This document shows, in pieces, positions 18,797-62,695 of a stretch of 64,000 nucleotides of DNA. This stretch comes from an uncultured Gammaproteobacteria bacterium (GTDB lineage: Bacteria > Pseudomonadota > Gammaproteobacteria > UBA9214), in assembly GCA_963710815.1 (NCBI GenBank), contig CAVQCA010000157.1, forward strand, positions 40,271-104,270, written 5' to 3'. Position numbers and translations under genes: made by a program. The notes beneath the pieces are model-generated. The model saw only the letters and a program-made list of their open reading frames with translations, searched no databases and was not told the DNA's origin. Position 1 is the first letter of the stretch; each line of letters starts with the position of its first letter.

Positions 18797-18844
18797 TGCC
18801 TGTACCTCCGTCAGTCCTCGATGAAGTAGCTATTGTTGTGTTGA

Positions 18845-19083
18845 TCCATAAACACCGTTTTCACCGCAAAGACGCAAAGGACGCAGAGAAATTCTTTAAT
18901 GAAAACAAATCAAGGAAGCTCTGATGTGTCGTCATACAGGACGCGTGTTCCATCATCCAGATGCATGATTTTCTGGATTCCGGCATTCGCCGGAATGACA
19001 GTAAAATAGAAGTTAATCAGAGGTTACTTAAACTCTGCGTTCTTTGCGTCTCTGCGGTGATTAATTTCCTTATGGATGGACGC
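18845..19083. repeat. CGCAAAG-octad palindromic repeat, copy A, with a roughly 115-bp insert in the loop
   Basis: Left arm TCACCGCAAAGACGCAAAGGACGCAGAGAAA (18862-) and right arm CTCTGCGTTCTTTGCGTCTCTGCGGTGA (19034-19060). Outer ends CCATAAACACC / CCTTATGGATGGACGC match copies C and E. Confidence 0.75.
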
Positions 19084-19204
19084 TGCTATTGTAGGTGCGG
19101 GATCGTCTACAGGGAAGCAGGGAGCCCGCAGCTGCATTCAGATGCAGGGGATGGCTGCGCACCCAGCGGCATCGTCCGCCGTAGAGGCAACGGCATCCGC
19201 CCGA

Positions 19205-21124
19205 TCAGCGGGGTTCGACATCCCCCTGCCGCGCCTCCAGCTGCTCGCAGGCCACAAGCCACTCCCCCTCCAGGACTGCGCTCCGACGGTTCAGCTCCGC
19301 CTTCTCCCGCAGCAGGTCGTTCAGTTCGGCCTTGTTCACCGGAAGGTAGATCTCGGGCTCGGCGAGGCGCTGCTCGAGTTCGTGCTGGCGGGCGTGCACC
19401 CCGGCAAGCGCGGCTTCCGCCTTCGAGATTTTCTCGTGCAGCGGTTGCAATTGCCGGCGCTGATCGGCCTCCTGACGCTTTTTCTCCTTGCGCTGGGCTG
19501 CGCCGCCCGGGCCTTCGGCGTTCCCGGACGCATACCGGCTCTGCCGGTTCCGCGCGGTCAGCCACTGCGGGTAAACATCCAGATCGTCGGGGAATTCCTC
19601 CACCCGCCCGGCGTGCACCAGCACCAGCCGGTCACTGGTGACACGCAGCAGATGTCGGTCATGCGAGACCAGCACCATGGCGCCGGCGAAATCCTGCAGG
19701 GCCGTGGCCAGCGCCTGACGCATTTCCAGGTCCAGGTGGTTGGTGGGCTCATCGAGCAGTAGCAGGTTGGGCCGCTGATAGACCAGCAGCGCCAGCACCA
19801 GGCGTGATTTCTCCCCACCGGAAAACGGGCCGGTCGGCGCCAGCGCCTGGTCGGCGGGAAAGCCGAAGCCGCCGAGATAATCGCGTAGTTCCTGCTCGCG
19901 CGCCTTCGGGTCGAGCCGCAGCAGGTGCTGCAGTGGAGAGGCCTGCGCATCAAGCTGCTCGATCTGGTGCTGGGCGAAATAACCGACCCGCAGGTCCTGC
20001 GCCGGCTCGCGTCGGCCCTGCCGTGGAGCGAGTTCACCGGCCAGCAGCTTGATCAGCGTGGATTTGCCGGCGCCGTTGGGACCGAGCAGGCCGATGCGCT
20101 CGCCCGGCGAGAGGCTGAGTTCGACTCCACCGATGACCGTCGCCTCACCGTAGCCTGCAGCCACCGCGCGCAGACGCAGCAGCGGATCCGGCAGCTTTTC
20201 CGGCGCTCGCAGGCTGAACTGGAACGGCGAGTCCACATGCGCCGGGGCGATCAGTTCCATGCGCTGCAGGGCCTTCAGACGGCTCTGGGCCTGACGCGCC
20301 TTGGTGGCCTTGGCGCGGAAGCGTTCGACGAAGGAATGCATGTGCGCGATCTCGCGCTGCTGCTTCTCGAATTGCGCCTGCTGGCCGGCCAGGTATGCCG
20401 CGCGTCGGCGTTCGAACGCCGAATAATTGCCATTGTAGAGTGTAAGCCGCTGGCGTTCGATGTGGGCGATATGACTGGCCACACTGTCGAGAAAATCCCG
20501 GTCGTGCGAGATCAGCAGCAGCGTGCCAGCATAGGCGCGCAGCCAGTTTTCCAGCCAGATCACCGCATCCAGATCCAGGTGGTTGGTGGGTTCGTCGAGC
20601 AGCAGCAGGTCCGAACGGCACATGAGAGCCCGCGCCAGGTTCAGCCGCATGCGCCAGCCGCCCGAGTAATCGCCCACCGGCCGGTCTTCATCGATAGAGC
20701 TGAATCCCAGACCGTGCAGCAGCTGCGCGGCGCGGCTGCGGGCCGTGTAGCCGCCGATCACCTCGTAGTGCGCGTGCAGCGTGCCGATCTGTTCGCCATC
20801 GTGCCGGGCTTCCGCTTCGGCGAGCGAGGCCTCGACCGCGCGCAACCCTTCGTCCCCGTCGAGCACGTACTCGATGGCCGCGCGCGGCTCGGCCGGCGTT
20901 TCCTGCGCCACATGGGCGATCACCCAGTCGGCCGGATGCCGGCACGCGCCGCCATCGGCATGCAGTTCATCGCGGATCAGGGCAAACAGGCTCGACTTGC
21001 CGGTGCCGTTTGCTCCAGTCACGCCGACCTTCCAGCCGGGGTGGATCTGCAGGGTGGCGTTCTCAATAAGCAGACGCGTCCCGCGCCTCAGGGTGAGATT
21101 ATCGAATTGCAGCATGGGCACCAT
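19205..21124 (-). CDS. yheS: ABC-F family ATPase YheS
   Basis: Collinear with E. coli YheS along its whole length (two ABC domains, QLLHGLGFS, RFRAKATKARQAQSRLKALQRMELIAPAHVDSPFQF, C-terminal coiled coil). Start placed at MVPMLQFDNLTLRRG. Confidence 0.85.
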   Translation of the reverse strand: MVPMLQFDNLTLRRGTRLLIENATLQIHPGWKVGVTGANGTGKSSLFALIRDELHADGGACRHPADWVIAHVAQETPAEPRAAIEYVLDGDEGLRAVEASLAEAEARHDGEQIGTLHAHYEVIGGYTARSRAAQLLHGLGFSSIDEDRPVGDYSGGWRMRLNLARALMCRSDLLLLDEPTNHLDLDAVIWLENWLRAYAGTLLLISHDRDFLDSVASHIAHIERQRLTLYNGNYSAFERRRAAYLAGQQAQFEKQQREIAHMHSFVERFRAKATKARQAQSRLKALQRMELIAPAHVDSPFQFSLRAPEKLPDPLLRLRAVAAGYGEATVIGGVELSLSPGERIGLLGPNGAGKSTLIKLLAGELAPRQGRREPAQDLRVGYFAQHQIEQLDAQASPLQHLLRLDPKAREQELRDYLGGFGFPADQALAPTGPFSGGEKSRLVLALLVYQRPNLLLLDEPTNHLDLEMRQALATALQDFAGAMVLVSHDRHLLRVTSDRLVLVHAGRVEEFPDDLDVYPQWLTARNRQSRYASGNAEGPGGAAQRKEKKRQEADQRRQLQPLHEKISKAEAALAGVHARQHELEQRLAEPEIYLPVNKAELNDLLREKAELNRRSAVLEGEWLVACEQLEARQGDVEPR

Positions 21125-21337
21125 TGTAGCGTCCCGGACGACAAATGGCTGGCTGCATGGAATGCAGCCGGTCATAAACTCATGGCCGGCTAATATTTCA
21201 CTAACGTTCGATTTCTAGTATGGTACCCGCAACACTGGCAGCCTCACGGAGGATCGACCTATGCACGAATGACAGATAACGGCGACATAGTCTTCCTGTT
21301 AACGGATTCCCCACGAACCTGAACAGAGGTATGCCTA

Positions 21338-22141
21338 ATGTCGAAACAATCGCGTAGTAAATGCCGAACAGGCGCAACCAGGAAATCAGGCAGTCGAGCA
21401 GACCTGGAAATTCTCACCACCGATGGTGTCGTCATCGACATCAACACCTTCACTCTCCACCCCTCCCGCAACACCAGCCGCAACAGTCCCCGCCGCATCG
21501 AAGCCAGAAACCGGGCACAGGGGCAGTACATGGCGGCCATCACCGGCTACCCGCTAACGTTCGGTCTCGGCCCTGCCGGCACCGGCAAGACCTACTGTGC
21601 CACGGCCATGGCGGTGGAGGCCTTCGAGCGGCGCGAGGTCGAGCGCATTATCTTCACCCGCCCGGCCATCGAGTCCGGTGAAACCCTGGGCTTCCTGCCC
21701 GGCAAGGTCCAGGAAAAGATCGAGCCCTGGTTCGCCACCTTCCGCGGCTACCTCAACGATCTGCTCGGCAAGGGCGTGGTCGACTGTGCATTGAAGAACG
21801 AACGCATCATCTTCGAACCGCTCGCCTACATGCGCGGCAAGACCTTCGATGACGCCTTCGTGATCCTCGACGAGGCGCAGAACTGCACCCGCCTGCAGCT
21901 GAAGATGTTTCTTACCCGCATCGGCGAGCGCTCCCGGGTGGTGGTGAACGGCGACCTGAACCAGTCCGACATTGCGCGTGATTCAGGACTGCTCGATGCC
22001 GTCGCTCGACTGCGCGGTCTGCGTCACGTGCATATCCACGAATTCGGCTGTGGTGATATCGTGCGTAGCGACCTGGTGCGCGCCATCATCGAACGCTACG
22101 CGGACAATACACGCTCGGAGGGCAGCTACTTCTCGTATTAA
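21338..22141 (+). CDS. PhoH-like ATPase
   Basis: …YMAAITGYPLTFGLGPAGTGKTYCATAMAVEAFERREVERIIFTRPAIESGETLGFLPG…, a PhoH/YbeZ-type P-loop. The N-terminal 60 aa are low-complexity, so the start is uncertain. Confidence 0.75.
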   Translation: MSKQSRSKCRTGATRKSGSRADLEILTTDGVVIDINTFTLHPSRNTSRNSPRRIEARNRAQGQYMAAITGYPLTFGLGPAGTGKTYCATAMAVEAFERREVERIIFTRPAIESGETLGFLPGKVQEKIEPWFATFRGYLNDLLGKGVVDCALKNERIIFEPLAYMRGKTFDDAFVILDEAQNCTRLQLKMFLTRIGERSRVVVNGDLNQSDIARDSGLLDAVARLRGLRHVHIHEFGCGDIVRSDLVRAIIERYADNTRSEGSYFSY

Positions 22142-22164
22142 CGGAACGTTGGACCGTGAAGAAG

Positions 22165-22258
22165 TAATTTCACCGCAGAGACGCAAAGAGCGCAGAAAAA
22201 ACCTTTACTGACAACATATAACCGCTTTACACACTTCACGTCTCCGCGATGAAGATGG
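22165..22258. repeat. CGCAAAG-octad palindromic repeat, copy B (degenerate right arm)
   Basis: TTCACCGCAGAGACGCAAAGAGCGCAGAAAAAACC … CACGTCTCCGCGATGAAG, immediately after the phoH-like stop. Confidence 0.5.
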
Positions 22259-22494
22259 AGGATTTTGCACGGCAACAGCCAGTCGCGCAGCTGCGCACTG
22301 CAGCGTAACTACCAGCCGCAACTGTGGAAGATTGCGGGAAAAGTCATTCGTTGTCGCTATAATGCACCCCCAGAATCCATGCGGCGGTTACCATGACGCC
22401 ATGGGTACCTCGAATTATTCATTCACCTACTGTAGAGACGGGCTCTTGTGCCTGCTCCTACGAAAGGTATCTCCATTCTCGAGGGTGACCTCTA

Positions 22495-23319
22495 TTGAAC
22501 AAGCTTCACCCCCGGAACCTGGCCGCCGCGTTCGCGGCAATCGATGCCGAGGCGCGGGCCGAGCGGGCGAGGCAACCCGGCGCAGAGCGGCGCGCTGCAG
22601 TGGCGCTACTCACCGTGGCCGTCTGCCTGTTGATGATCCACTACCTGAAATTCGAGACCAGCTTCGAGGCATTCCTCGACTGGGTTGGCCAACAGACGGG
22701 AGATCCCGGTTTCACCCGCGTTTTACGGCATGGCCGCTGGTACGAACTCTACACCGAACTGTGGTGGGGCGCGGTGCATCTGCTGGGCTATGTCATACTG
22801 CCCTCGCTGGTGATCCGCTTCATCCTGCGCGAGCGGGTGCGCGACTTCGGTCTGCACTGGGGCGAGACCGTGCGCTATGCCGGCTGGTACCTGCTGCTGG
22901 CGACGCCGATTATCGGCTTCGCCTTCCTGGTGAGCCACCGTCAGGACTTCCTTGAACACTACCCGTTTTACCGACTGGCTTTCCGCAGCGGCTTCGACCT
23001 GCTCGCATGGGAGGTGATCTACCTTCTGCAATTCGCCTTCCTGGAATTTTTCTTCCGCGGATTTTTCCTGCACGCATGCAAACCGGCATTCGGCGCCAAC
23101 GCCATCTTCGTCATGGTGGTGCCCTACCTGATGATTCACTTTGCCAAGCCCTGGCTGGAGGCGAGCGGCGCCATCCTGTTCGGCCTGTTCCTGGGCGTGC
23201 TGGCGCTGCGCTCGCGCTCCATCTGGGGCGGCACGCTGGTGCACATGAGCGTCGCACTCAGCATGGATCTGCTGGCGTTGATGCAGACAGGTCATCTCCC
23301 GGGGCGCTGGTGGCCATGA
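22495..23319 (+). CDS. CPBP-family intramembrane metalloprotease (CAAX protease / Abi-like)
   Basis: Polytopic protein with the EExxxR motif (…LEFFFRGFF…) and downstream His motifs typical of the CPBP family. Confidence 0.7.
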   Translation: MNKLHPRNLAAAFAAIDAEARAERARQPGAERRAAVALLTVAVCLLMIHYLKFETSFEAFLDWVGQQTGDPGFTRVLRHGRWYELYTELWWGAVHLLGYVILPSLVIRFILRERVRDFGLHWGETVRYAGWYLLLATPIIGFAFLVSHRQDFLEHYPFYRLAFRSGFDLLAWEVIYLLQFAFLEFFFRGFFLHACKPAFGANAIFVMVVPYLMIHFAKPWLEASGAILFGLFLGVLALRSRSIWGGTLVHMSVALSMDLLALMQTGHLPGRWWP

Positions 23320-23461
23320 CGATGCCCGGGACCATCCCGGTAGTGCATCACGCTTACCGTGGCAGGCTGCCGGCGTTGCCGCAAATCGGCGACCTCCCGG
23401 AGCGTGGCCTGTCATGAAATCAGCCGGAGCAAACTCCGAGGGACATCACCGTTACCGGAGC

Positions 23462-24166
23462 ATGCTCTGGGCAATTCTTTTGCTGGCCGCGTTGCCCGCC
23501 TCGCTGCTGGCCAGCTGGCAATTGCTCACAAGCGCCGACTTTCTCTACCCGTTGTGGTACGACGTGATCGGCATCGACCGCACCATCGCGGAGTACGGAC
23601 CAAAGAACCGCTACAGGAAACACTTCGAACTCACTACGCGGGAGGAACGCAGCCGGCTGTTCGCCGCCATCGTCGCCGGGATCAATGACGGCGGACAGGG
23701 ACTGGAAACCCTTACCTACCACGACGCCCGGGGCCAGGCCGTCGCGCCGCTGCTGCGTTCCCCGGAGATCACTCACCTGCGTGACGTAGCGCGACTGGTC
23801 AATGGGCTTTACCGTCTCGGCCTGGGGGCCATTGTGGTATGGATTATCGTACTCGCCTGGCTATGGCGTATGCGCCTGCCGCCTCCCCCGCTCGGGCGCT
23901 ACTTCGCGGGCCTTGGTCTTCTCGCGGTCGTGTTGACCTTCGCCGTCATCGCTATCGGGGCGAAGAAGGTGTTCTATACCGCGCACACCCTGATCTTTCC
24001 GGCCGGTCACCAGTGGTTCTTCTATTATGAGGAGTCCCTGATGACCATGCTGATGAAGGCGCCTGACCTGTTCGCCGCCATCGCCGCGGAGTGGCTGCTG
24101 CTGACCGCCCTGTGCTACTGGCTGGGCATCCGCCTGTCACGCCGGATCGTCCGCCGCGTCACCTGA
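23462..24166 (+). CDS. DUF1461/TIGR01906-family integral membrane protein
   Basis: N-terminal TM, a large extracytoplasmic segment and C-terminal TM helices (…FYTAHTLIFPAGHQWFFYYEESLMTMLMKAPDLF…). Family assignment is from memory. Confidence 0.5.
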   Translation: MLWAILLLAALPASLLASWQLLTSADFLYPLWYDVIGIDRTIAEYGPKNRYRKHFELTTREERSRLFAAIVAGINDGGQGLETLTYHDARGQAVAPLLRSPEITHLRDVARLVNGLYRLGLGAIVVWIIVLAWLWRMRLPPPPLGRYFAGLGLLAVVLTFAVIAIGAKKVFYTAHTLIFPAGHQWFFYYEESLMTMLMKAPDLFAAIAAEWLLLTALCYWLGIRLSRRIVRRVT

Positions 24167-24270
24167 GCATCCTGCAGGAACGGCCCTTGCCGTGAAGGGT
24201 TTCCGGTCACGCCAGCCTCGTGCGCAGGTTGCCAGTTCCAGCAAGCTGATATATCTATAACCAGTGTTTA

Positions 24271-24393
24271 TCCATAAACACCATTCTCAACGCAAAGACG
24301 CAAAGTTCGCAAAGAAAACCAACTACAAAAACAATTAAAAGACTTTGCGTTCTTTGCGCCTTTGCGTTGAGCTTATTTCTTTATGGAGGACGC
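24271..24393. repeat. CGCAAAG-octad palindromic repeat, copy C (complete)
   Basis: TCCATAAACACCATTCTCAACGCAAAGACGCAAAGTTCGCAAAGAAAACC…(AT-rich loop)…GACTTTGCGTTCTTTGCGCCTTTGCGTTGAGCTTATTTCTTTATGGAGGACGC. Confidence 0.8.
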
Positions 24394-24409
24394 TAACGAC
24401 CCCCACGTT

Positions 24410-27400
24410 CTACAGCAGCACCCGTTCGATGCCGCCGTCGCGGACGCTGGAGATGAACTGCTTCTCCCATTCCCTGCCGAGCAGGTGGTTGGCGAGTTCC
24501 ACCACGATGTAATCGGTTTCGAGACCGGTGTCATCGGCATAGCGGGCCAGTCCCTGCTGGCAGGACGGGCAGGAGGTCAGCAGTTTGACGTTGCCCGCGA
24601 TGGCGGTCGTCTCCCCCGTCAGTGCCTGAATTCCCTGGGCGAGCTGCTCCTGCTTGCGGAAGCGCAGCTGGGTGGCGATGTCCGGGCGCGACAGGGCGAA
24701 GGTGCCGGCCTCGCCGCAGCAGCGGTCGGAGAGCATGACCGGCTGGCCCATCAGGGTCGAGGCGACCTGGATCGGGTTGTGGGTCTTCATCGGCGTGTGG
24801 CAGGGATCGTGGTAGAGGTACTGCACGCCCTGCCCCGCCTCGAGATGCACGCCCTTCTCCAGCAGGTATTCATGGATATCGAGCAGACGGCAGCCCGGGA
24901 AGATCTTGTCGAACTCGTACTCCAGCAGCTGGTCCATGCAAGTGCCGCAGGAGACGATGACGGTGCGGATGTCGAGGTAGTTGAGGGTGTTGGCGACGCG
25001 GTGGAACAGCACCCGGTTGTCGGTGGTGATCTGCTGCCCGCGGGCGGCATCGCCGCCGGCTTTCTGCGGATAGCCGCAGCAGAGATAGCCAGGCGGCAGC
25101 ACGGTCTGGGCACCCGCGTCGTAGAGCATGGCGAGCGTCGCCAGACCGATCTGGCTGAACAGGCGCTCGGAGCCGCAGCCCGGGAAATAGAACACCGCAT
25201 CCGAGGCCTCCGACACCTTGCGCGGGTCGCGCAGGATCGGCACCATGCGGCTGTCCTCCAGCCCCAGCTGCGCGCGCATGGCCTGGCGCGGCACGGAGGA
25301 TGGCATGGGTTTCTTTACGAAATGCACCAGCTGGGAGCGCAATGTCAGCGGACCGCTGGTCCCCTCCGGCAGCCCCCCGTCCCGCACCGGCACCAGCCGT
25401 CGCGCCAGGCGCACCGCGAGGCGCTGGCTGCGATAGCCCCAGTCGATCATCAGCTTGCGCATCAGCTTGATGGTCGCGGGATCGGTGACGTTGAGAAAGG
25501 TCATCGCCGCCCAGGTGATCGGGCTGTAGTGCTTCTGACCGCGCTCGCGCAGCAGCTTGCGCATGCGCATGGTGACTTCGCCGAAATCGATGTTCACCGG
25601 GCAGGGATTGAAACACTTGTGACAGACCGTGCAGTGGTCCGCCACATCGTTCATTTCCCTGAAGTGCTGCAGGGAAACGCCGCGGCGTGTCTGCTCCTCG
25701 TAGAGGAAGGCCTCGATGATCAGGCCAGTGGCGAGAATCTTGTTACGCGGCGAATAGAGCAGGTTGGCGCGCGGGATGTGCGTGTTGCACACCGGCTTGC
25801 ATTTGCCGCAGCGCAGGCAGTTGCGGATGTCGTCGTTGAGCGCGCCGAGTTCGCTCGCCTCCAGCAGCAGCGCCTCCTGCTGCACCAGGCGCAGCGACGG
25901 CGTATAGGCGCTGCCGAGTCCCGAACCGGGCAGCAACTTGCCGCGGTTGAAGTGTCCTTCCGGATCGATCTCCCGCTTGTAGTGTTCGAACGCGGCGATC
26001 GCCTGCGGCTCCATGAACCTGAACTTGGTCAGACCGATACCGTGCTCACCCGAGATGACGCCGCCCAGCGAGACGGCGAGTTTCATCACCCGGTCGACGA
26101 TCAGATCCGCCTCGTGCAGCATCGCATAGTCGGAGGAGTTAACCGGGATGTTGGTATGCACGTTGCCGTCGCCGGCGTGCATGTGGGTCGCGACGAACAG
26201 GCGGCTGGTGCGCAGCCCGGCATGGATGGCCTCGAGCTGCTCCAGCAGCCGCGTCCACTCGTGTCCGCCGAAAATCTCCGACAGCGGCCGCGCCACCTCG
26301 CCACGGTAGGAAATGCGCAGATCCCGACGCAGCAGCAGGTCCAGCACCCGGTCACCGGGCCGGGCCTTCGCCAGCACGTCCGCGTCCAGTAGCTCTGGAT
26401 GTTCCGCCGCCGGCTCATCCAGGTGATCGAGCAGGCTGGACCAGCGCGTCTTCCGGGCATCGAGCAGTTCCCGGGCGGCATCCTGCTTGGCCTGCACAAT
26501 GGTGCGATTCTCCTCGCTGTCGACAAATTCACCGTCGCGGTGCAGCGCCGCCAGGTCGCCGGCGAGGAATTCCCGCACCGCCTCGACGATAGCGAGCTTG
26601 TTGCGCGTCGAATACTCGATGTTCATGCGCTCGATGCCGGCGCTGTATTCATCCAGCCGCTCCAGCGGAATGACCACATCCTCGTTGACCTTGAAGGCAT
26701 TGGTATGCGAGGCGATCGCCGCGGTACGCGAGCGGTCGGCCCAGAACTGCTTGCGCGCCTCGGCGCTGACGGCGATGAAGCCTTCCGCGCCGCGCTGATT
26801 GGCCATGCGCACCACGGTCGAGCAGGCGTCGGCCACCGCCGTCTCGTCGTCGCCGGAGACGTCGATCAGCAGCACCATCTTGGGCAGTTCGCTGCGCGCC
26901 GCCTTGCTGCTGTACTTGACGGCCCGGACATAGCGTTCGTCCATGTGCTCCATGCCGGCCAGCAGCACATCCGGCCGGGCATCCAGGTAGTGCCGGGTTT
27001 CCACGATGGCCGGGACCGCGAGGCGCAGGTCGGTGCCGAAGAACTCGAGACAGATAGTACGCGTGTACTCCGGCTTGCGGTGCAGGATGAATTCCGCCGA
27101 GGTGATGAGACCGTCGCAGCCTTCCTTCTGGATGCCCGGAATGCCCGCGAGGAACTTGTCCGTCACGTCCTTGCCGAGGCCCGGTTTGCGCAGCGAGCTT
27201 CCCGGCACGCGGATGATTTCCGGCTCCTGCAGCGGCTGGTCGGGACCCTTCTGGTAGCGGATTACCCGGAATTCGACCTGCTCCTGCAGATGGATCTTGC
27301 CCAGGTTGTGGTTGAGCCGCTCGACCTCCAGCCAGTTGCCGTCCGGGGCCACCATGCGCCAGGAGACCAGATTGTCGAGCGCCGTGCCCCAGAGCACGGC

Positions 27401-28252: not shown

Positions 28253-28346
28253 GGTGAGGATGGGCTCTGCGGGGCAATCAGGAATAGTGGGAGTGCTATT
28301 TTACCAGCGCCGCCGTTGGCCGACTAAGTGCTAATTGGTGGCGAAC

Positions 28347-28659
28347 CAAAAACCCTGTTTTCACCGCAAAGACGCAAAGTTCGCAAAGAAACTTATTTAC
28401 AAAAAACAATCCTGATTATTCCTGAAGTTCAGCCATGGCTCAGATAGGCGGCCTCCACGCCAGAGCCACAAGACCCGCCGTAAATACTTCCCTGTGGGCT
28501 CGACTGCCGCATCCCTGCGGCAGAAGGTCCTTGCGACCCTGACCCGGAGGCCGCCAGTTAACGCTACCAGTGGCGGCATAAACCGGATTGCAGAGTTTCA
28601 GGGATAATTAGCGAAACAATTAAATCCTTTGCGTCTTTGCGTTGAATTTATTTCATTGC
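28347..28659. repeat. CGCAAAG-octad palindromic repeat, copy D, with a roughly 200-bp insert (28411-28620) in the loop
   Basis: Left arm TTCACCGCAAAGACGCAAAGTTCGCAAAGAAACTT and right arm CCTTTGCGTCTTTGCGTTGAATTTATTTC. The insert is GC-rich with long-range complementarity GGCGGCCTCC…GGAGGCCGCC. Confidence 0.75.
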
Positions 28660-28672
28660 TGATAGACATCAA

Positions 28673-29608: not shown

Positions 29609-30039
29609 GGTCCCAGATGATCAATGAATTTCCACGTAAAAGCCAGAGTCGCAGAGGAATTTCTCATGGAAAACAATTACAACGTATGGCGTCTCTGCTT
29701 TGGAATGACAGGCTGACGAGAGGGGGCAGCAGGTTTCGGTCTGCCGACGCACCACGGCGCACGGGATCAACAGCGCGTATTATAACCATTTTCGAATCGC
29801 TATAATACTTCTGTCACGACCCGTAAGTCGCCAGATGGTAAATGATAACGGACATCACCGGGTATTGACCGCATCAGGTGTTAACAATCCCTTGTCAGAC
29901 GCCCGGGGGAGCGAACTACGGGATCACCCTGAGTATTGGACGGGTTCCCGAATTCACCTCACGGGATCCTCCGTCCATGGCTTCATGCGGTAGAGGACAG
30001 AATTGGCTATGATAAGGGCTTGTTCAAGCCATCGCGTTG

Positions 30040-30207
30040 CTAGGAACCTGTCGGACTTAGGCTTGATCTACTGCGCTGGCGGGAGAGCGGCCCATAGTTC
30101 CCCGATATTTCGTTGCATAGAACCACTATGCGCCTCGATATCGTGAACCTCTGTGCTCGCTCTCCCACCATGCTCGCTACGATCACCTAAGTCCGACAGG
30201 CTCCTAG
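30040..30207. mobile_element. MITE-like 168-bp element, copy 2 (reverse orientation relative to copy 1)
   Basis: CTAGGAACCTGTCGGACTTAGGCTTGATC…GATCACCTAAGTCCGACAGGCTCCTAG. Its core is the reverse complement of the copy-1 core. Confidence 0.8.
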
Positions 30208-30242
30208 TGCGGCGGATGACCCCACACAATCCGTCCACAGCC

Positions 30243-31169: not shown

Positions 31170-31176
31170 ATCAGTG

Positions 31177-31294
31177 TCCATCCATGGACACCATGCTCAC
31201 CGCAGAGACGCAATTATTTCCAATAGCCTCGCTAAAGAATCTCTCTGCGTTCCTTGCGTCTCTGCGGTGAGTTAATTTCCTTATGGACAGACAC
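31177..31294. repeat. CGCAAAG-octad palindromic repeat, copy E (complete; variant CGCAGAG)
   Basis: TCCATCCATGGACACCATGCTCACCGCAGAGACGCAA…TCTCTCTGCGTTCCTTGCGTCTCTGCGGTGAGTTAATTTCCTTATGGACAGACAC. Confidence 0.8.
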
Positions 31295-31328
31295 TAATGA
31301 ATCAAGCGCCGTGGACGCGCTCAGGCTG

Positions 31329-32468: not shown

Positions 32469-33323
32469 TCAGCCGGATGCGAAGGTGTTACAGCTGCCGA
32501 TGTCGCCGTGCTCGATGCCGCGCTTGAACCACTCGACGCGCTGGCGCGATGTTCCGTGGGTGAAGTTTTCGGGAACCACGTAGCCGCTGCCCTCTTTCTG
32601 CAGGCGGTCATCGCCGATGGCGCTGGCCGCGTTGAGTGCCTCCTCGATATCGCCCTCCTCCAGCACGTGGCGGCTGCGATCAGCATGGTTGCCCCAGACT
32701 CCGGCGAAGCAGTCGGCCTGCAGTTCCAGCTTGACCGAGAGCGCATTGGCTTCCGCCTTGCCGAGACCACGCTGTTCTGACTGAATACGATCGCTGATTC
32801 CCAGCAGGTTCTGCACGTGATGGCCCACCTCGTGAGCGATGACGTAGGCCTGCGCGAAATCGCCGGGCGCGCCGTGACGGCGCCTGAGTTCATCGAAGAA
32901 CGAGAGATCGATGTAGACTTTCCTATCGCCGGGACAGTAGAACGGACCCATGGCGGCGCTGCCCGTGCCGCAGGCGGATTGGACGGCCCCGGTGTAGAGC
33001 ACCAGGGTCGGTTCCTGGTAGGTCTTACCCGACTGGCGGAAAATATCCGTCCAGGTATCCTCGGTATCGGCCAGTACCACCGACACGAAATCCGCCATCT
33101 GTTGCTCCTCCGGCGAGGGCTGCCGGTCGGTCTGGCTGACATCGGTGCCCAAACCCGTACCGGTTTGCATCATCAGGATATCCAGCGGATTGATGCCGAG
33201 AAAATAGCTGGCAACCAGCACCAGCGCGATGGTGCCGATGCCGCCCTTGAAGACGACGGGGCCGGCACTCCGTCCACGCCGGTCCTCGATGTTGCTGCTC
33301 CGACGTCCGGTCTTCCAGCGCAT
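32469..33323 (-). CDS. YpfJ-family putative neutral zinc metallopeptidase
   Basis: Collinear with E. coli YpfJ (MRWxGRR…DRR…GPFYCPxDxxVYIDLSF…HEVGHHVQ…ELQADCFAGVWG…SWFKRG). Confidence 0.8.
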   Translation of the reverse strand: MRWKTGRRSSNIEDRRGRSAGPVVFKGGIGTIALVLVASYFLGINPLDILMMQTGTGLGTDVSQTDRQPSPEEQQMADFVSVVLADTEDTWTDIFRQSGKTYQEPTLVLYTGAVQSACGTGSAAMGPFYCPGDRKVYIDLSFFDELRRRHGAPGDFAQAYVIAHEVGHHVQNLLGISDRIQSEQRGLGKAEANALSVKLELQADCFAGVWGNHADRSRHVLEEGDIEEALNAASAIGDDRLQKEGSGYVVPENFTHGTSRQRVEWFKRGIEHGDIGSCNTFASG

Positions 33324-33406
33324 GGGAACCTCCATTCCGGGACAGGAAAACGAAATCCGGGATCATCCCGTATCCGTCGTGCGCATGGTGTCGCACCGCC
33401 CGTCGA

Positions 33407-33631
33407 TCATACCCGCTTGCGGGACAGTCCGGACAGCAGCTTGAGCGCCAGCAGCAGCAGCGGCGTGCCGTGCAGGAACAGGTCGAAGATGTCTATCGGT
33501 CTGACCAGTGTTCCCGAGGCGAGCATCTTCAGCTTCTCCCACAGGTGCGGTTCCGGAACAAACGGCGCCAGCGCCATCACGACAGCCAGCGGCAGCAGCA
33601 CGGAAAGCGGAATGCTATCAAGCCATTTCAT
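33407..33631 (-). CDS. small hypothetical membrane protein (74 aa, two predicted TM helices)
   Basis: Hydrophobic ORF MKWLDSIPLSVLLPLAVVMALAPFV…LLLLALKLLSG. Upstream ORF 33618..34031 may be its frameshifted 5' part. Confidence 0.35.
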   Translation of the reverse strand: MKWLDSIPLSVLLPLAVVMALAPFVPEPHLWEKLKMLASGTLVRPIDIFDLFLHGTPLLLLALKLLSGLSRKRV

Positions 33632-34110
33632 GGTTCGCGTCCGGATTCACTATGTATAAGGGTGTAATGCCCGGTACTGTTGGCTTCATTTCGTTCTGCT
33701 CATAGGCTTCTTTTATCACGATTCTTTTCACAGTACCCAGCACACCGGATGCAGTCAAATCAGCCAGACAGGGCTGGAGTAGACGGACAGGACCGTCGGC
33801 CGCAGGGAAGCGGCCGGCGAGCCTTCGGAGACGGATTAACGGCGAATCCCGCCCGTTCTCCGGTCCGTCGCACCGACAGGACAGGGCCGGGATGATCAGG
33901 CTGGCGAACACCAGGTAGACACCGACCAGCTGCACGGACGCCGTAACACCACGGCATGCAGGGTAAATAAACCAACAGGAGAAATTACGCGTGCAGTGGT
34001 GGAAGGGCGGAGATCTGGCAACCCGCCGCATTGGTATCCACCCGGCAGTCAGGCGAACAGGCTCTGGCGGGAGTTGAACCCGTCCGCATTTCCAGCGGCG
34101 CTGTTCCTGC

Positions 34111-34320
34111 TTACTCGCCTTCGATCATGCGGCAACGCCGGCGGTATTCCTCTTCCATTGCCGCCAGGTGCCCGAGCACATTCTCCAGCGTCTCCTGTTT
34201 TGATGCGTCCTGGGCTTCTTCCAGCCACTGCTCCATTTCCTCCCGCAACAACGTCAGTATGTTCAGCGCGCCGATGAGCTCGTGCAGTTCACCAGGTTTT
34301 TCCGATGTGTCGTCGGTCAT
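34111..34320 (-). CDS. small acidic hypothetical protein (69 aa) immediately downstream of the ArsB/NhaD permease gene
   Basis: ORF with a 10-nt gap to the upstream gene and a helical, acidic sequence. No family recognised. Confidence 0.3.
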   Translation of the reverse strand: MTDDTSEKPGELHELIGALNILTLLREEMEQWLEEAQDASKQETLENVLGHLAAMEEEYRRRCRMIEGE

Positions 34321-34330
34321 GCGGGAAACC

Positions 34331-35674
34331 TCATAGATAACGCAGGTAGACGTATATCATAGCAATGAAAATCGACAGCAGCATCAACGGGAAGGCCATC
34401 AACATGAAAGGCATGAAACGGATAGGGTGCCCGGTGCGCTCCGCGAAACTCGCAATGATGAGGTTCGAACTCGATCCCACGAGGCTGCCGCTGCCGCCGA
34501 GGCAGGCCCCCAGGGAAAGCGACCACCAGACGGGAAGCAGCGCATGAGACCCGCCCAGTGAGGGTGCCATATTCTTGATCAGGGGAATCATCGTCGCGAC
34601 GAAGGGGATGTTATCCACCAGCGCCGAGGCGACCGCCGAGACCCAAAGCACGGAAATGGATGTCACGGTGGTATTGCCGCCGGTCAGCTTGAGCAGCCCA
34701 TGGGCCACGTTTTCCATCAGCCCGGTCACACCTACGCCGTAGACAATGATAAACAGACCGATAAAAAAGAAGATGGTCTGCCACTCCACGTCGGCGAAGG
34801 TCTGTTCGACCACCCTGGACTGTTCACCGGGACTGCGGGGCAGATTGTCCAGCAACAGCAGCAGTGAAGCGCCGAACATAGCGACGGTGGCGACCTCCAC
34901 ATGAAGGACTTTCGCCAGTGCAAAACCGGCAATCACCAGGGCGAGCACGACCAGCGATTGCCACAGCAGACGCCTGTCGGTGATGGCATCGGCTTCGCGG
35001 TAATCGAGCACGCGCTGGCGTCGTTCGGGGCTCGCCTTCAGTCCTCCTCCCCAGATCAGGTAGATCGGCAGCAACGTGGCGATAAAGGCCACCAGCGCGA
35101 GCGGGCCAAGGTTCAGCAAAAAGTCATTGAAGCTCAGACCGGCGGCGGAACCGATCATGATGTTCGGGGGATCGCCGATCAGCGTGGCGGTGCCGCCGAT
35201 GTTGGCGGCGAACAGCTGGGCGAACAGGTACGGGTAGGGATTTACCTTCAGGGCGTCGGTGATCAGCAACGTGACCGGCGCGATCATCAGCACCGTCGTC
35301 ACGTTGGGCAGCAGTGCCGAGAGCACCGCCGTAACCAGCGCCAGCATCACCAGGATACCCACGGGCTCCGCCCTGACCTTTTTCGCCGACCAGATGGCAA
35401 GATACTGAAAAATACCGGATTTCTTGGTAATCGCGACGATGATCATCATGCCGGTCAGCAGGCCGATGGTGTTGAAATCGATACCGCGCAGGGCGGCTTC
35501 CTGGTTGAGCAGGCCCCCGGCGATCATCAGCCCGGCAGCCATCAGTGATACGACCGCCCGGTTGATGCGGTCCGTCATGATGACCACATAGGTCAGCACG
35601 AAGATGACACCCGCGAACCATACGGGATCCATGCCCAGCAGCAGCCGGGTGGCTTCTGTTCCTTCAGTTACCAA
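34331..35674 (-). CDS. ArsB/NhaD-superfamily anion permease (citrate/arsenite-transporter-like)
   Basis: 447-aa polytopic protein with the duplicated-hairpin architecture and conserved …GDPPNIMIG… / …GSSSNLIIA… segments of the ArsB/NhaD/CitMHS superfamily. Confidence 0.7.
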   Translation of the reverse strand: MVTEGTEATRLLLGMDPVWFAGVIFVLTYVVIMTDRINRAVVSLMAAGLMIAGGLLNQEAALRGIDFNTIGLLTGMMIIVAITKKSGIFQYLAIWSAKKVRAEPVGILVMLALVTAVLSALLPNVTTVLMIAPVTLLITDALKVNPYPYLFAQLFAANIGGTATLIGDPPNIMIGSAAGLSFNDFLLNLGPLALVAFIATLLPIYLIWGGGLKASPERRQRVLDYREADAITDRRLLWQSLVVLALVIAGFALAKVLHVEVATVAMFGASLLLLLDNLPRSPGEQSRVVEQTFADVEWQTIFFFIGLFIIVYGVGVTGLMENVAHGLLKLTGGNTTVTSISVLWVSAVASALVDNIPFVATMIPLIKNMAPSLGGSHALLPVWWSLSLGACLGGSGSLVGSSSNLIIASFAERTGHPIRFMPFMLMAFPLMLLSIFIAMIYVYLRYL

Positions 35675-35675
35675 G

Positions 35676-36137
35676 TCAAACCTCGGCGGCGAGTATCTTT
35701 CTGGTTACATCCCAATAGGAGATCATGCCCACAAGCCGCCGTGTGGTCTTCTCGACCACCGGCACGCTGGTGCGGGTCTTGTAGAGAACGAGCAGTGTTT
35801 CCAGCAGGGGAGTATCGGGTTCCACCACGGTGACCTCTTCATTGATGCACAGGCTGATCGGATCGTCCTCTACCTCGATAAGCCGCCGGTGCAGGTCCGT
35901 TAGCGTCTCCCGGATGAAGGGAATCGTGGTCAGGCCCTCCTTCATAACGACCGCCTGTGGCAACATGAGACGCAGCAGACAGTGTACCCCGAAGACGCCC
36001 AGATAGCGGTCATTCTCATCTACAACCGGCAGATTGCGGTAGCGGTGATGCATGATGTACTGCGTGGCGGTGCGGACGGTATCGGTGGAACGCAGCACCG
36101 TCGGCTTTGGATCCATGATGGTATTGGCGGTCATGGG
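35676..36137 (-). CDS. CBS domain-pair protein
   Basis: Two CBS motifs (…YRNLPVVDENDRYLGVFG…, …TSVPVVEKTTRRLVGMISYWDV…). Start placed at MTANTIMDPK; the listed ORF is 5'-extended. Confidence 0.65.
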   Translation of the reverse strand, partial: PMTANTIMDPKPTVLRSTDTVRTATQYIMHHRYRNLPVVDENDRYLGVFGVHCLLRLMLPQAVVMKEGLTTIPFIRETLTDLHRRLIEVEDDPISLCINEEVTVVEPDTPLLETLLVLYKTRTSVPVVEKTTRRLVGMISYWDVTRKILAAEV

Positions 36138-36270
36138 CGATGAGTCATTGTCATGGAGAATGTGATTCCCACCTGCCCTCGCGTGGTCGCTGCATTCCGG
36201 TGTCCCACCAGGGGAAGACGGCCAATTCCCCGCGGTCACGATAGCATGCGCCAGCGGAGAGAGAAAGCAC

Positions 36271-37278
36271 TCAGAACTCCCGCAGATTCGCCTCGACCAG
36301 CCGGACATCCAGCTCGCCGATCCCGGCCCTCTCCCCCGAGATCAGCACCGGCAGACCGTTGCCGGCATCAAGGTAGATCGCGATAGCGCCGCGCAGCTCC
36401 AGCAGTTCGAAAACCGCCGGGTCTGCCCCCGGGCTGATCGGTTCGACCCGAAGCGACAGTTTCAGCACCCTCCGGGAACCGCTAACCCTATGCACGGCAC
36501 CACCGGCGTTCACGGTATAGTCGAGGTGACGCTTGGCCTCCACACCTGGCACGAGCCATACCCGATAGAGCGCATCATCATTAAAGACGCACAGGGGTCT
36601 GCCGCCGTTGGATGGCTCCCGGGACGATGCGCGATCGAGCAGCAGCTCCGGACTGGTCACGAAGTCGCAGCCGGCAGTGGCCAGGTCATACGGATAAAAG
36701 CTCCGTTTGATCTTGGTCCAGTCGACGGGCGGCTGCCTCCCCTCCTCCCGGCTGTCCGGCTCCACCCTGATCCGTGTGGCGCCATCTCCGGCGTAGCGAT
36801 AAACCTTGCGGGCACCGCCCGGTCCGGGTTTCAGCCGGTCGCGCTGCAGGACGGCGAGGCTTCCGGCGGCAAACCAGACCCGCCCCTCCGTGCTGTAGCG
36901 CTCAAGCACCGACTCCGCCAGCGCATGAATATCGAGACGCATGACCTTGCCGGCGACCTGCTGGAATCCCTCGTTTCCGAGCGCGGCATAGGGGCGCGCC
37001 TGCATATCACTACGCGAGGATTCCCCGAGATCTAGCGTCGTCGTAAGGCTGATCCCGAAACGGCTTGCCTCGAAGCGAAGCATGGTCCAGTCCACGCCGG
37101 GAAGGCTGCTCTGCGTGACCGGCGGAGCCTCGCCTCCGGCGTGGCTATACAGCGACAGGGGCAGCAGAAAGGCGAGCAGTGCGGTGCGCAGCGTCCACTC
37201 CCGCGCAACCGGGCCGGCGGTGGCCGCGGCGACAGGCAGTACGACGAATTCCTTTAAACAGTTCATTTCCGATCCCAT
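36271..37278 (-). CDS. hypothetical exported protein
   Basis: 335-aa ORF with a signal-peptide-like N-terminus (MNCLKEFVVLPVAAATAG…LLAFLLPLSLYSHA) and good coding character. No family recognised. Confidence 0.5.
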   Translation of the reverse strand: MGSEMNCLKEFVVLPVAAATAGPVAREWTLRTALLAFLLPLSLYSHAGGEAPPVTQSSLPGVDWTMLRFEASRFGISLTTTLDLGESSRSDMQARPYAALGNEGFQQVAGKVMRLDIHALAESVLERYSTEGRVWFAAGSLAVLQRDRLKPGPGGARKVYRYAGDGATRIRVEPDSREEGRQPPVDWTKIKRSFYPYDLATAGCDFVTSPELLLDRASSREPSNGGRPLCVFNDDALYRVWLVPGVEAKRHLDYTVNAGGAVHRVSGSRRVLKLSLRVEPISPGADPAVFELLELRGAIAIYLDAGNGLPVLISGERAGIGELDVRLVEANLREF

Positions 37279-37596
37279 GTCCTTGAATGAAATGCCTGAT
37301 CTCACGCGGTAGTATAAGCCACCCGCCCGCGTTTCTCGCCTGGCTGGAACGGCGCTCGCACCTTCCGCCGGATACGGCACTTCAGTCTCTACTTGTTCTT
37401 GAATAAGTACCTGTACCTATACAGAAATGTGACGCAATGCCGTTATTGCCTGTGTCGTCCCGATGCCTTGTGAGACAGGGACATGCGACAACCAGACCCG
37501 GACAATTGTCGAATTGCGCCCTGATAAACGGTCTGACACGGGCTCCTGCACAAGAGACGACGTTCGTTAACCAGTACACGGAAGAGGGACCTTGCA

Positions 37597-38805
37597 ATGC
37601 CGGTAAAAAAAATCCGTACCGAGGACGTCGAAGTTGGCATGTTCGTCTCCAGCCTCGACCGCCCCTGGAGCGAAACTCCGTTCCTGTTTCAGGGTTTTCC
37701 GGTCCGGGAAAAGACCGAAATCGATGAGCTGGAAAAGCTCTGCCGCCATGTCTACATCATGGTGCCTGACGAGGAGATCGAGCTCAGCGACGTTACCCCT
37801 AACAAATCCGGGGAGGTTTATCGCGACATCGTCGGACACAAACACTACCAGATCACCAAATCGGCCCAGGAGGAAGTACATGCGGTGCACCGCTCCCACG
37901 AGGAAATCTCCATTCTGGTTCGGGAGATCGAGGCCGCGCTGAACGATGACAAGGAGATCGATCTGCCGGCGATCACGAAATCCATCGAGTTCATGGTCGA
38001 CAGTATCGAGCGCAACCCGGACGCCTACATCTGGCTCACAAGGATCAAGAAATTCGACTCGACGATCTACAAGGATGCACTCAGCGCCTCGGTGTGGGCA
38101 ACGACTCTGGGACGGGAACTCGGGCTGGCGCGGGACAAGCTCAATGCCCTGTGCATGGGGACACTGTTCATGGACATCGGCAAGACGGCCCTGCCAAGCA
38201 AGCTGCTGAACCAGGCAGGACGACTGTCGGACGATGAATGGGCGCTGATGAAAACCCACGTCGAGCAGGGTGTACGCATCCTTTCGGAAAAGGACGGCAT
38301 TCCGGATGACGTCCTCGACATCGTCCGCACGCATCATGAGCGGCTGGACGGCAGCGGTTACCCCGCGGCCCTCAGGGGCGATGGATTACCCCTCCTCGGG
38401 CAGATTGGCGGCATCGTCGATTTCTACGTATCTGTAACACTGCCGCGGCCCTACGCCAAGGCCGTTTCACCCTCCAATGCCATTTACATGCTGTATCAGC
38501 AGCAGGGGCGCCACTTCTCCGAGCTGCTCGTCAGGAACTTCATTCATGCCCTGAGCACCTACCCCACCGGCTCACTCGTAGAACTAAGCAGCGGCGAGGT
38601 CGGCATTGTGATATCCCAGAACCCCGGCCTGCGCCTGAAGCCCAACGTGGTCCTGATCCTCGATCCTGACAAGAAGCCCTACGGATCCTACCCGATCATC
38701 AATCTCGCCGATTACAGCCCCGGACACACCGGCAACCCGATCAATATCGTAAAGACCATGGTGGACGGTGATTACGACATACGAGTTGAGGAACTGGCAT
38801 TCTGA
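37597..38805 (+). CDS. HD-GYP domain phosphodiesterase with an N-terminal DUF3391-like domain (likely c-di-GMP turnover)
   Basis: N-terminus MPVKKIRTEDVEVGMFVSSLDRPW…, as in DUF3391 proteins. C-terminal HD domain with …MKTHVEQGVRIL… and the HHERLDGSGYP motif. Confidence 0.8.
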   Translation: MPVKKIRTEDVEVGMFVSSLDRPWSETPFLFQGFPVREKTEIDELEKLCRHVYIMVPDEEIELSDVTPNKSGEVYRDIVGHKHYQITKSAQEEVHAVHRSHEEISILVREIEAALNDDKEIDLPAITKSIEFMVDSIERNPDAYIWLTRIKKFDSTIYKDALSASVWATTLGRELGLARDKLNALCMGTLFMDIGKTALPSKLLNQAGRLSDDEWALMKTHVEQGVRILSEKDGIPDDVLDIVRTHHERLDGSGYPAALRGDGLPLLGQIGGIVDFYVSVTLPRPYAKAVSPSNAIYMLYQQQGRHFSELLVRNFIHALSTYPTGSLVELSSGEVGIVISQNPGLRLKPNVVLILDPDKKPYGSYPIINLADYSPGHTGNPINIVKTMVDGDYDIRVEELAF

Positions 38806-38970
38806 CCGTCGGCCTGACATGGTTCCGCCAGGTCATGGGCCTTTCCGGCTGTTTATCCGTTCATACGCCCGCCGTACGATGGCGGGAAATCATGAGGTCG
38901 TTGCCGCAGCGGCGGGATGCATCGAATTGCCTCCCGTATCGGTAAAAAGTGCCACACGCTATCTTTGGCC

Positions 38971-39177
38971 TCAGTTTCTCAGGAAGTACGGCAGCGCGAC
39001 CAGAAGCAGACCGGCAAGAACGAGGTAATAGACGTTCGATATAACATAGGGGACGACAAACAGGGCAATACCGGCCACCAGCGGAACAACCGCCTGTTGC
39101 TTGCGGCCATAAATAAAGAATCCGAGCCCAACAGACCCGAAGATCACGCCCCAGAGCAGCGTCGAGGTATCGCCCAT
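38971..39177 (-). CDS. small hypothetical membrane protein (68 aa, 2 TM)
   Basis: MGDTSTLLWGVIFGSVGLGFFIYGRKQQAVVPLVAGIALFVVPYVISNVYYLVLAGLLLVALPYFL is strongly hydrophobic and plausible, but the family is unknown. Confidence 0.4.
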   Translation of the reverse strand: MGDTSTLLWGVIFGSVGLGFFIYGRKQQAVVPLVAGIALFVVPYVISNVYYLVLAGLLLVALPYFLRN

Positions 39178-39422
39178 AAGGGATGCCTGCCTCCTGACCC
39201 GTTATCGAATTGACCGCCAAAGTTCACTGAACACGTTCACGCCGCGGCACAGACTACCATAGACAGCAAAATCCCGGGCGAGGCTGATGAGAGATGTTCA
39301 CTCCATACGGAATGAACACATCGACGTGCCGCACCGCCGCCCCGGAACATTGAAGCGCGCGGCGCGTGTCCCCGATCGAAAGCGGTCCCGGACAGACACC
39401 TTACTGCGCGGTCAGCGGACGA

Positions 39423-41285
<1,863 letters not shown>

Positions 41286-41385
41286 GGGGGGATTGTACGG
41301 CCCTGCGACGACCCGGTCAGCCGGAAAACCGGAAAGAGGATGTAATCCATGATACAGGGACTATTCGGGCACGTTTCGCGCTAGA

Positions 41386-41523
41386 GTAGGGTTCATCCAT
41401 ATAGAAACAAACTCACCGCAAAGGCGCAAAGAACGCAAAGTGTTTGATTTTTCTTATTAAAAAGAATTTCTCTGCGTCCTTTGCGTCTTTGCGGTGAAAG
41501 CGGTGTTATGGGGACCCAGGAGC
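41386..41523. repeat. CGCAAAG-octad palindromic repeat, copy F (complete), directly abutting MITE copy 3
   Basis: CTCACCGCAAAGGCGCAAAGAACGCAAAGTG…(AT-rich loop)…TTTCTCTGCGTCCTTTGCGTCTTTGCGGTGA, a near-perfect 28-bp inverted repeat. Confidence 0.8.
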
Positions 41524-41525
41524 CT

Positions 41526-48399: not shown

Positions 48400-48523
<124 letters not shown>

Positions 48524-48928: not shown

Positions 48929-49892
<964 letters not shown>

Positions 49893-62602: not shown

Positions 62603-62604
62603 GA

Positions 62605-62691: not shown

Positions 62692-62695
62692 TTTG

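Follow-up and report, generated by a model that had tools for sequence, protein, structure and literature searches.

Between 18.8 and 41.5 kb of a 64-kb stretch of DNA from an uncultured gammaproteobacterium (contig CAVQCA010000157.1; the whole stretch of 64,000 nt is called the window below), a palindrome built from tandem CGCARAG heptads recurs in seven intergenic regions. What is this element, and how did it come to be dispersed? A reading of the window from sequence alone had described a family of intergenic palindromic repeats with conserved outer boxes, and had offered several explanations: units resembling repetitive extragenic palindromes (REPs) or bacterial interspersed mosaic elements (BIMEs) that serve as terminators and insertion targets, a binding array with three direct octads per arm, or non-autonomous elements mobilised in trans by an HUH transposase of the IS200/IS605 type. 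Our analysis points to a family of miniature inverted-repeat transposable elements (MITEs) of ~132 nt, with terminal inverted repeats (TIRs) and 4-base target duplications, moved in trans by a staggered-cut transposase. We assign this reading a probability of roughly 0.7.

The copies were established by a motif scan, by direct reading of the sequence and with a repeat finder, and their termini were then refined (Table 1). The palindromic family described by the sequence-only reading is real. Its 19-mer arm motif TCACCGCAAAGACGCAAAG, with up to 3 mismatches, occurs 11 times in the window and never in shuffled sequence, and heptad pairs of the form CGCARAG-N0-3-CGCARAG number 16 against 0.02 expected, all of them within 18865-41493. 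Five copies (A, C, D, F, and G) are well preserved and have two inverted arms each; the other two (B and E) are decayed. Every copy is intergenic, as had been claimed, and lies between housekeeping genes. Folded as single strands, copies C, F, and G form strong hairpins (z = -6.8, -8, and -5.7, respectively), and copies B and E do not (z = -1.4). One arm of copy A is 98% identical to an arm of copy G over 47 nt.

To delimit the element, we used a lineage-specific pattern of 25 bases from its left end, ACACCNNTNTCAMCGCARAGRCGCAAAG, which matched at least 120 metagenome stretches. Beyond ~28 nt from each arm the columns are conserved no better than background, and the termini were therefore set at AGTGTTCATCCATAA and TTATGGATGGACACT. 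The conserved outer boxes are thus genuine, and they are the terminal inverted repeats of the element. Each unit consists of a 15-nt TIR (AGTGTTCATCCATAA / TTATGGATGGACACT), a 9-nt spacer that does not pair, a 28-nt arm made of TCACC and three CGCARAG heptads, an A/T-rich loop of ~28 nt, and a mirror-image arm and terminus; there is no open reading frame (ORF) inside. Length is uniform, at 131-133 nt in 25 of the 38 distinct elements among the lineage metagenome matches, and the spacing between the left core and the right end is 108-109 nt in most of them.

The flanks of these elements record insertion. Where both termini could be located (37 distinct elements), 13 elements are bordered by identical 4-nt sequences, against 1.44 expected from mismatched partners, and five more match at three of the four positions. 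The duplicated tetranucleotides differ from site to site (ACTT, AAAT, AGCT, AATT, AAGT, AGAT, AATC), so they are not part of the element and represent independent events. The base before the duplication is T in 11 of 11 cases and the base after it is A in 10 of 11, defining the target T|ANNT|A. Three elements with deviant terminal bases (L204, L239, and L251) change these bases as an inverted and not as a direct pair, which fixes the duplication at 4 bp. In the window, the flanks of copies C, D, and F match at three of four positions. TIRs, a short duplication of fixed size, uniform length, and many copies together place the element among MITEs, which are non-coding and small (under ~500 bp); seen from the window alone, it is a new family of a quite ordinary kind. 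The transposition mechanism is demonstrated for the window's lineage only.

HUH transposases produce no target duplication. The TIRs and 4-bp duplications thus argue against mobilisation by an HUH enzyme or a REP-associated tyrosine transposase (RAYT), and the proposed IS200/IS605-type route is contradicted in this lineage. Palindrome-associated transposable elements (PATEs) derived from IS200/IS605 were rejected as a candidate: they are defined by subterminal hairpins and the lack of both TIRs and target duplications, and TIRs and duplications are present here. The lineage elements occupy 29 convergent, 50 tandem, and 13 divergent intergenic regions, and at tandem sites their orientation relative to transcription is random (28 versus 22, p = 0.48). 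This setting fits that typical of a tolerated selfish element.

Mobility is also apparent among close relatives. The orthologous intergenic regions were aligned with the syntenic contigs L120, L121, and L122/L123, in which the oxidoreductase encoded near the copies is 94-97% identical. Copy A is present in L120 and L121 without the 112-nt stretch that fills its loop in the window, and the corresponding site in L122 holds unrelated sequence; the missing stretch was thus inserted later, in the window's lineage. One arm of copy B is kept in the window, L120, L121, and L122, and copy E is equally decayed in all four. Copy C, intact in the window, is truncated in L120 and has a GTAG-type REP in its place in L121. 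L120 has no copy F; a GTAG-REP dimer stands in its position. Copy D has a long loop both in the window and in the 97%-identical relative L120, with different loop sequences. Copies are thus inherited, decay, and are gained, lost, or replaced over a short evolutionary scale. The comparison of orthologous regions suggested by the sequence-only reading uncovered presence/absence differences among relatives, and the family is neither confined to the window nor kept in position in all relatives. The GTAG-tagged REPs that replace heptad copies lie at 7240-7317 in L120 and 6613-6700 in L121. Downstream of the oxidoreductase gene, L120 (~13960-14020) and L121 (~6760-6820) also have in common a bidirectional terminator-like palindrome, AAAAAGGGGACATTCTACTTTTCGCTGCAGCGAAAAGTAGAATGTCCCCTTTTT, that is not found in the window.

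The loop of the hairpin is an insertion hotspot, a preferred landing site for small elements. Inserts had been noticed in the loops of copies A and D, and both stand: that of A is window-specific, and that of D differs in the relative. The role of insertion target proposed for the palindromes therefore holds for their loops, which take in REPs and other elements. Inside the copy A insert lies a REP of the CGTC superfamily that agrees feature by feature (TGTC variant of the tag, 8-bp stem starting from AT, 4-nt loop, CCA tail) with the CGTC-1 architecture (Di Nocera 2013, PMC3733652). Only this cargo of copy A qualifies as a REP, which by definition is an imperfect palindrome of 20-40 bp and has at one end a GTAG or CGTC tag that does not pair. 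CGTC-type REP modules also fill the loops of heptad elements on a single 16-kb IMG/VR contig (L155/L136), which has eight such loops. BIMEs are mosaics in which REPs alternate in orientation and are separated by conserved extra-REP motifs; here, GTAG or CGTC REPs lie between heptad arms in L155, L136, L126, and copy A. Most copies carry no REP: GTAG- or CGTC-tagged hairpins are present in 7 of the 86 loops of at least 30 nt, against 0.6 in shuffles. The loops are more structured than shuffled sequence (mean z = -2.6). Arms can be nested, as in L083, L084, L088, and L113; in L084 there are three arms on the left and three on the right. The cargo of copy D belongs to a second family. It has an inverted relative near 33.8 kb, of which 56 nt (33789-33844) are 79% complementary, and inserts of its type occupy the same loop position in L179 and L200; an Rfam search with the second copy returned only a sub-threshold Ysr224-like match. 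REPs within longer unrelated palindromes are known from Anabaena and Halothiobacillus, not for the heptad palindrome (PMC3733652). The proposed likeness to REPs and BIMEs therefore holds in part: the copies build BIME-like mosaics with true REPs, but the unit itself is a MITE and not a REP. Pseudomonas-like GTAG-tagged REPs (GTAGGAGCGGGCTCGCC...) adjoin copies A and B, and the occurrence of such REPs in the window and its relatives suggests that the lineage probably also has a RAYT.

The arms extend far beyond this lineage. A scan of genomes, one per species, with the pattern TCAMCGCARAGRCGCAAAG listed at least 119 loci with arms of the form TCAMC-(CGCARAG)2-3, mostly paired around unrelated loops. 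By our own estimate, a uniform-random model predicts ~35 matches in the 596 Gb searched, so isolated matches prove nothing. A third heptad, CGCRRAG, continues 91 of 152 arms (chance rate ~0.1%), and 113 of the 152 have an inverted partner within 500 nt. The carriers come from at least 16 phyla of bacteria and, among the archaea, from a single genus, represented by two metagenome-assembled genomes of Methanoperedens. They include Acidobacteriota, Thermodesulfobacteriota, alpha-, beta-, and gamma-Proteobacteria, Nitrospinota, Nitrospirota, Verrucomicrobiota, Bacteroidota, Chloroflexota, Planctomycetota, Myxococcota (complete Sorangium genomes), Kiritimatiellota, Fibrobacterota, Latescibacterota, Chlamydiota, and two candidate phyla. 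The sequence-only reading had assumed a family specific to one taxon; at least the arms are shared across many phyla. Arms were also found in 29 IMG/VR stretches. Among 72,556 plasmids, three weak records contain an arm and none the full MITE; the phage collection gave one partial match, essentially none, and the arms are absent from 5,426 complete E. coli genomes.

Between genomes, 19-28 nt of the arm are kept and the sequence outside is lineage-specific; loops from different genomes are not homologous and share no cargo. The spacing of the heptads varies by 0-5 nt between genomes. In the lineage MITE, the heptads of the arm left unconstrained by the search are more conserved than the tips of the TIRs. 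The A/C position of TCAMC agrees between the arms of a pair in 34 of 35 cases, against 21 expected. The motif has no Rfam entry, and exact fragments of it returned nothing or primer coincidences in the literature that is searchable outside subscription journals; a literature search by concept gave no description of it either, and it is likewise missing from the text of the main REP papers and from one searched supplementary set. No family matched at Rfam gathering thresholds. The heptad hairpin core thus appears not to be an already catalogued family and apparently has not been described before. On one viral contig (L140, IMGVR_UViG_3300014202_001126), single unpaired arms at 350, 2695, 4617, and 9133 come after the stop codons of consecutive genes that are read in one direction, and the arms all share one orientation.

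A sister family of like design consists of inverted pairs of GCCACGGAA-N-CACACGGAA-NN-CACGGAA. It is present once in the window and, among the matches listed, in 38 metagenome loci of the lineage. Thiohalobacter sp. COW1 (L126) carries at least 12 sister arms within 24 kb, where they flank GTAG and CGTC REPs. This family suggests a broader class of foldback elements with arms built from heptads. In addition, tandem units of the CACAGAT(G/T) and GTTTGCA types adjoin heptad arms in L047, L057, L102, L074, L017, and L043, from Acidobacteriota, Kiritimatiellae, and others, which hints at more families of similar construction.

Several observations weigh against a MITE moved by a staggered-cut transposase. 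Perfect duplications border only the 13 elements counted above out of 37, and copy A is flanked by an 8-nt direct repeat, GCTATTGT (18829-18836 and 19085-19092), instead of a 4-nt one. The cross-phylum sample revealed no duplication at any fixed distance from the arms. Lineage-specific TIRs around inner arms that are shared across phyla are the reverse of an ordinary MITE. The A/G positions agree between the arms only at chance level, so the hairpin is not kept perfect and the constraint acts mainly on the sequence of each arm, not on perfect pairing. Finally, searches of the 64-kb window, of lineage metagenome loci amounting to 720 kb, and of the stretches that separate distant ends turned up neither a transposase nor an autonomous element with these termini; the few widely separated ends have ordinary genes between them (NlpC/P60, DUF1499, and acyl-CoA dehydrogenase) and no transposase.

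Other searches for the enzyme were equally negative. The HUH or RAYT gene that the sequence-only reading had proposed to look for was not detected: neither the window nor the related loci (276 loci, ~1.9 Mb) yielded such an ORF in tests of low power (phmmer with an IS200 TnpA query, and an HUH...Y regular expression). RAYTs are single-copy genes, and their absence from these samples is weak evidence. All-versus-all clustering of the ORFs around the 119 genome loci gave only ubiquitous superfamilies as recurrent neighbours; around 120 metagenome loci, it gave only spurious ORFs that translate the repeat itself.

Could the palindromes nevertheless be REP- or REPIN-like hairpins, moved as single-stranded DNA by a RAYT or another HUH tyrosine transposase of the IS200/IS605 type? 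In favour of such a route, the palindrome is strong and is closely associated with genuine GTAG and CGTC REPs, in the loops and beside the element, and the elements of L155 and L136 lack outer boxes and duplications. REPs in longer palindromes are on record, as are RAYT-like 'TIRYT' genes with long TIR families on their flanks (PMC3733652), and IS200/IS605 enzymes occur in both bacteria and archaea (PMC6006769), which fits the distribution of the arms. However, a single arm has neither a hairpin of its own nor a GTAG/CGTC tag, the lineage family has the TIRs and 4-bp duplications described above, and the low-power ORF searches gave no IS200-like or RAYT-motif candidate. We therefore regard this explanation as rather unlikely; a separate HUH-type route may exist in other lineages. 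Far less credible still, and close to discarded, are integron attC sites, or an attC cluster without an integrase. The copies are imperfect palindromes with a variable centre, and GTTGA variants fortuitously fit GTTRRRY, but GGTGA, the usual end of a copy, disagrees with the R' core; the intervening genes are large housekeeping genes in mixed orientation and not the promoterless cassettes that the R''/L''...L'/R' boxes of attC sites bound, and no integrase was found.

The arms might instead serve the host, each site being selected as a hairpin or protein-binding array (a stabiliser of mRNA 3' or 5' ends, an RNase target, or a site for a nucleoid or regulatory protein), with mobility incidental. 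Decay of orthologous copies in close relatives, or their replacement by unrelated palindromes, is hard to reconcile with such selection, as are the random orientation relative to transcription and the absence of the arms from E. coli. A heptad spacing that varies by 0-5 nt is awkward for a phased binding array, and the archaeon that carries the motif lacks bacterial host factors. What speaks for a host function is that conservation within the element is highest at the heptads, that the same 19-28 nt are kept across phyla when flanks and loops are not, that the TCA[A/C]C position covaries between arms, and that the lineage family is depleted in divergent intergenic regions. On balance we think this quite unlikely. 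The U-tract that directly follows the G+C-rich hairpin of an intrinsic terminator is missing, and no promoter or terminator consensus was recognised. The terminator role suggested by the sequence-only reading fails in particular: a terminator scan called none of the elements, the flanks are T-rich on the 5' and A-rich on the 3' side, and orientation is random. Consensus scans for a promoter or Shine-Dalgarno role gave no match either. Many arms lie 10-50 nt upstream of ORF starts by crude ORF calling; the Shine-Dalgarno idea was dropped because the GTTGA variant would destroy such a site and because Bacteroidota and archaea carry the motif. Position upstream of some gene starts, at 10-50 nt, and very negative folding z-scores could also betray a structured non-coding RNA gene or a cis-regulatory RNA family. 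Yet neither the length nor the sequence of the apical region is constant, the two orientations are equally frequent, transition sites show no compensatory variation, and Rfam yields nothing at gathering thresholds and only chance miRNA-like matches at permissive ones, making an RNA family very improbable.

The element can be compared with several known systems. Correia/NEMIS elements of Neisseria, ERIC/IRU of enterobacteria, RUP of Streptococcus, and Nezha of cyanobacteria are, like the heptad element, short, non-coding, and intergenic, with TIRs and a short duplication; they are also uniform in length, numerous, able to form a long hairpin, and mobilised in trans. In contrast to these bacterial MITEs, the most conserved part of the heptad element is internal (the three tandem heptads of each arm) and not terminal, this inner part is shared across phyla and the termini are lineage-specific, and a parent insertion sequence (IS) was not found in the window or the lineage loci. 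A T|ANNT|A target with a 4-bp duplication and AG...CT termini is not known from any IS family. With REP/BIME/REPIN systems and their RAYTs (PMC3733652; Nunvar 2010, PMC2817692), the element has in common that it is an interspersed extragenic palindrome, enters mosaics, and lies near GTAG/CGTC REPs. It differs in that it has no GTAG/CGTC tag, its arms start with TCAMC and are not themselves palindromic, its palindrome spans ~84 nt, and duplications are present. Moreover, its heptad sequence is conserved well outside the limits of a single genus, in contrast to REP families, most of which are confined to one species or genus, and no association with a RAYT was seen. Foldback (FB) transposons of Drosophila have long inverted arms of tandem short repeats and a variable centre that can hold unrelated cargo. 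The resemblance is an analogy only, as FB elements are eukaryotic and kilobase-sized, have no sequence relationship to the heptad element, and nothing indicates a related enzyme. To our knowledge, CIRCE/parS-type operators are the only common class of non-coding prokaryotic motifs of at least 16 nt that are near-identical across many phyla. These are single sites tied to one regulon or origin region, each bound by a known conserved protein; heptad copies, in contrast, are dispersed, variable in number, and decaying, with target duplications.

The genes around the copies are ordinary chromosomal ones: an MFS-acyltransferase, an ABC-F ATPase, PhoH, Rce1-like and Lit proteins, LpxL, MlaC, a Zn-peptidase, RecQ, glutamate dehydrogenase, and the 1280-aa DUF3683 FAD/Fe-S oxidoreductase, whose nearest named relatives are those of Thiohalobacter and Thiogranum, which places the gammaproteobacterium of the window in the neighbourhood of these genera. 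An unrelated MITE of ~169 nt with TIRs of ~22 nt (AGGAGCCTGTCGGACTTAGG) is present in three copies that are 92-95% identical. One of them adjoins copy G, so that copy G, not copy F as had been stated, is the heptad element that abuts a MITE (169 nt). Further along, two unbroken runs of A ~1.1 kb apart lie in a low-GC stretch (41-50% GC at 46-54 kb, ~60% elsewhere); their appearance suggests an artefact of assembly or masking, or else a highly unusual homopolymer. A perfect 30-nt inverted repeat with a 29-nt spacer near the end of the window is unrelated to the heptad family.

Table 1. Heptad elements, loop cargo, and other repeats in the window
Feature	Position	Strand	Description
Unrelated MITE	15402-15570	-	~169 nt
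Copy A	18837-19084	+	MITE; loop holds 112-nt secondary insert; arms 18861-18888 and 19033-19060
Secondary insert, copy A loop	18914-19025		Window-specific relative to L120/L121; own 8-nt inverted ends CTCTGAT.../...ATCAGAG
CGTC-superfamily REP in copy A insert	18974-19000	-	TGTC-ATTCCGGC-GAAT-GCCGGAAT-CCA
GTAG-tagged REP	19088-19135		Adjoins copy A
Copy B	~22147-22262	-	Old, partly decayed; good arm 22170-22197, partner arm decayed
GTAG-tagged REP	22420-22465		Adjoins copy B
Copy C	24263-24394	+	Intact 132-nt MITE; flanks AACC / AACG
Copy D	28337-28670	+	MITE; ~200 nt of foreign loop sequence; flanks AATT / AATC
Copy D cargo	28409-28618
Copy E	~29636-29710	+	Decayed remnant
Unrelated MITE	30040-30208	+	~169 nt
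Copy F	31173-31295	+	123-nt MITE; flanks AATC / AATG
Relative of copy D cargo	33789-33886		Inverted
Copy G	41388-41517	-	Inverted orientation; type-1 end adjoins unrelated 169-nt MITE
Unrelated MITE	41518-41683	+	~169 nt; adjoins copy G
A run	48400-48522		~123 residues
A run	49506-49639		~134 residues
Sister family copy	~55289-55362		GCCACGGAA-C-CACACGGAA...TTCCGTG-CAC-TTCCGTGGC
Inverted repeat	62604-62692		AGTTCAATGGGGTCAGACTCGATTGATCGT; 29-nt spacer

We propose the following course of events for the MITE. A transposase supplied in trans, probably of the DDE type to judge from the kind of ends and duplications, would make 4-bp staggered cuts and insert the element at T|ANNT|A, duplicating the central four bases. 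Inserted copies are then inherited vertically and decay, as copies B and E have done, and gene conversion or replacement homogenises others, as the similarity of the arms of A and G suggests. The hairpin loop takes up CGTC- or GTAG-tagged REPs and the second cargo family, giving rise to BIME-like mosaics. The heptad core, the most conserved part of the element, may be the cis-site of the mobilising protein, a putative subterminal binding array in keeping with the array that the sequence-only reading had proposed; secondarily, it may fold back in a way that promotes transposition or makes the element tolerable to the host. Candidate roles of the core are a transposase-binding array, a landing pad, and a host-useful hairpin.

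An interspersed palindrome is usually confined to one species or genus, and the enzymes that move such palindromes co-evolve with them. A non-coding motif of 19-28 nt that is near-unchanged among Acidobacteriota, Planctomycetota, Bacteroidota, Myxococcota, Proteobacteria, and an archaeon is unusual, and so is the part that the element plays as a landing pad for REPs. Such sharing points to a trans-acting factor whose specificity is very conserved or to one module that has repeatedly spread by horizontal transfer. We tentatively raise the possibility, which we hold to be doubtful at present, that TCAMC-(CGCARAG)2-4 is a pan-prokaryotic cis-module read by one conserved DNA-binding enzyme, possibly of a new transposase or recombinase lineage, and that it belongs to a prokaryotic foldback superfamily that includes the CCACGGAA-type sister family of the window and Thiohalobacter, with the loops as landing pads. 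The factor, if found, could bring to light a mobilisation system of a new kind, along with a natural DNA binder that is sequence-specific. In practice, the repeats will break or confuse metagenome assemblies and yield spurious small ORFs, and their loops are predictable hotspots of intergenic rearrangement in many environmental genomes.

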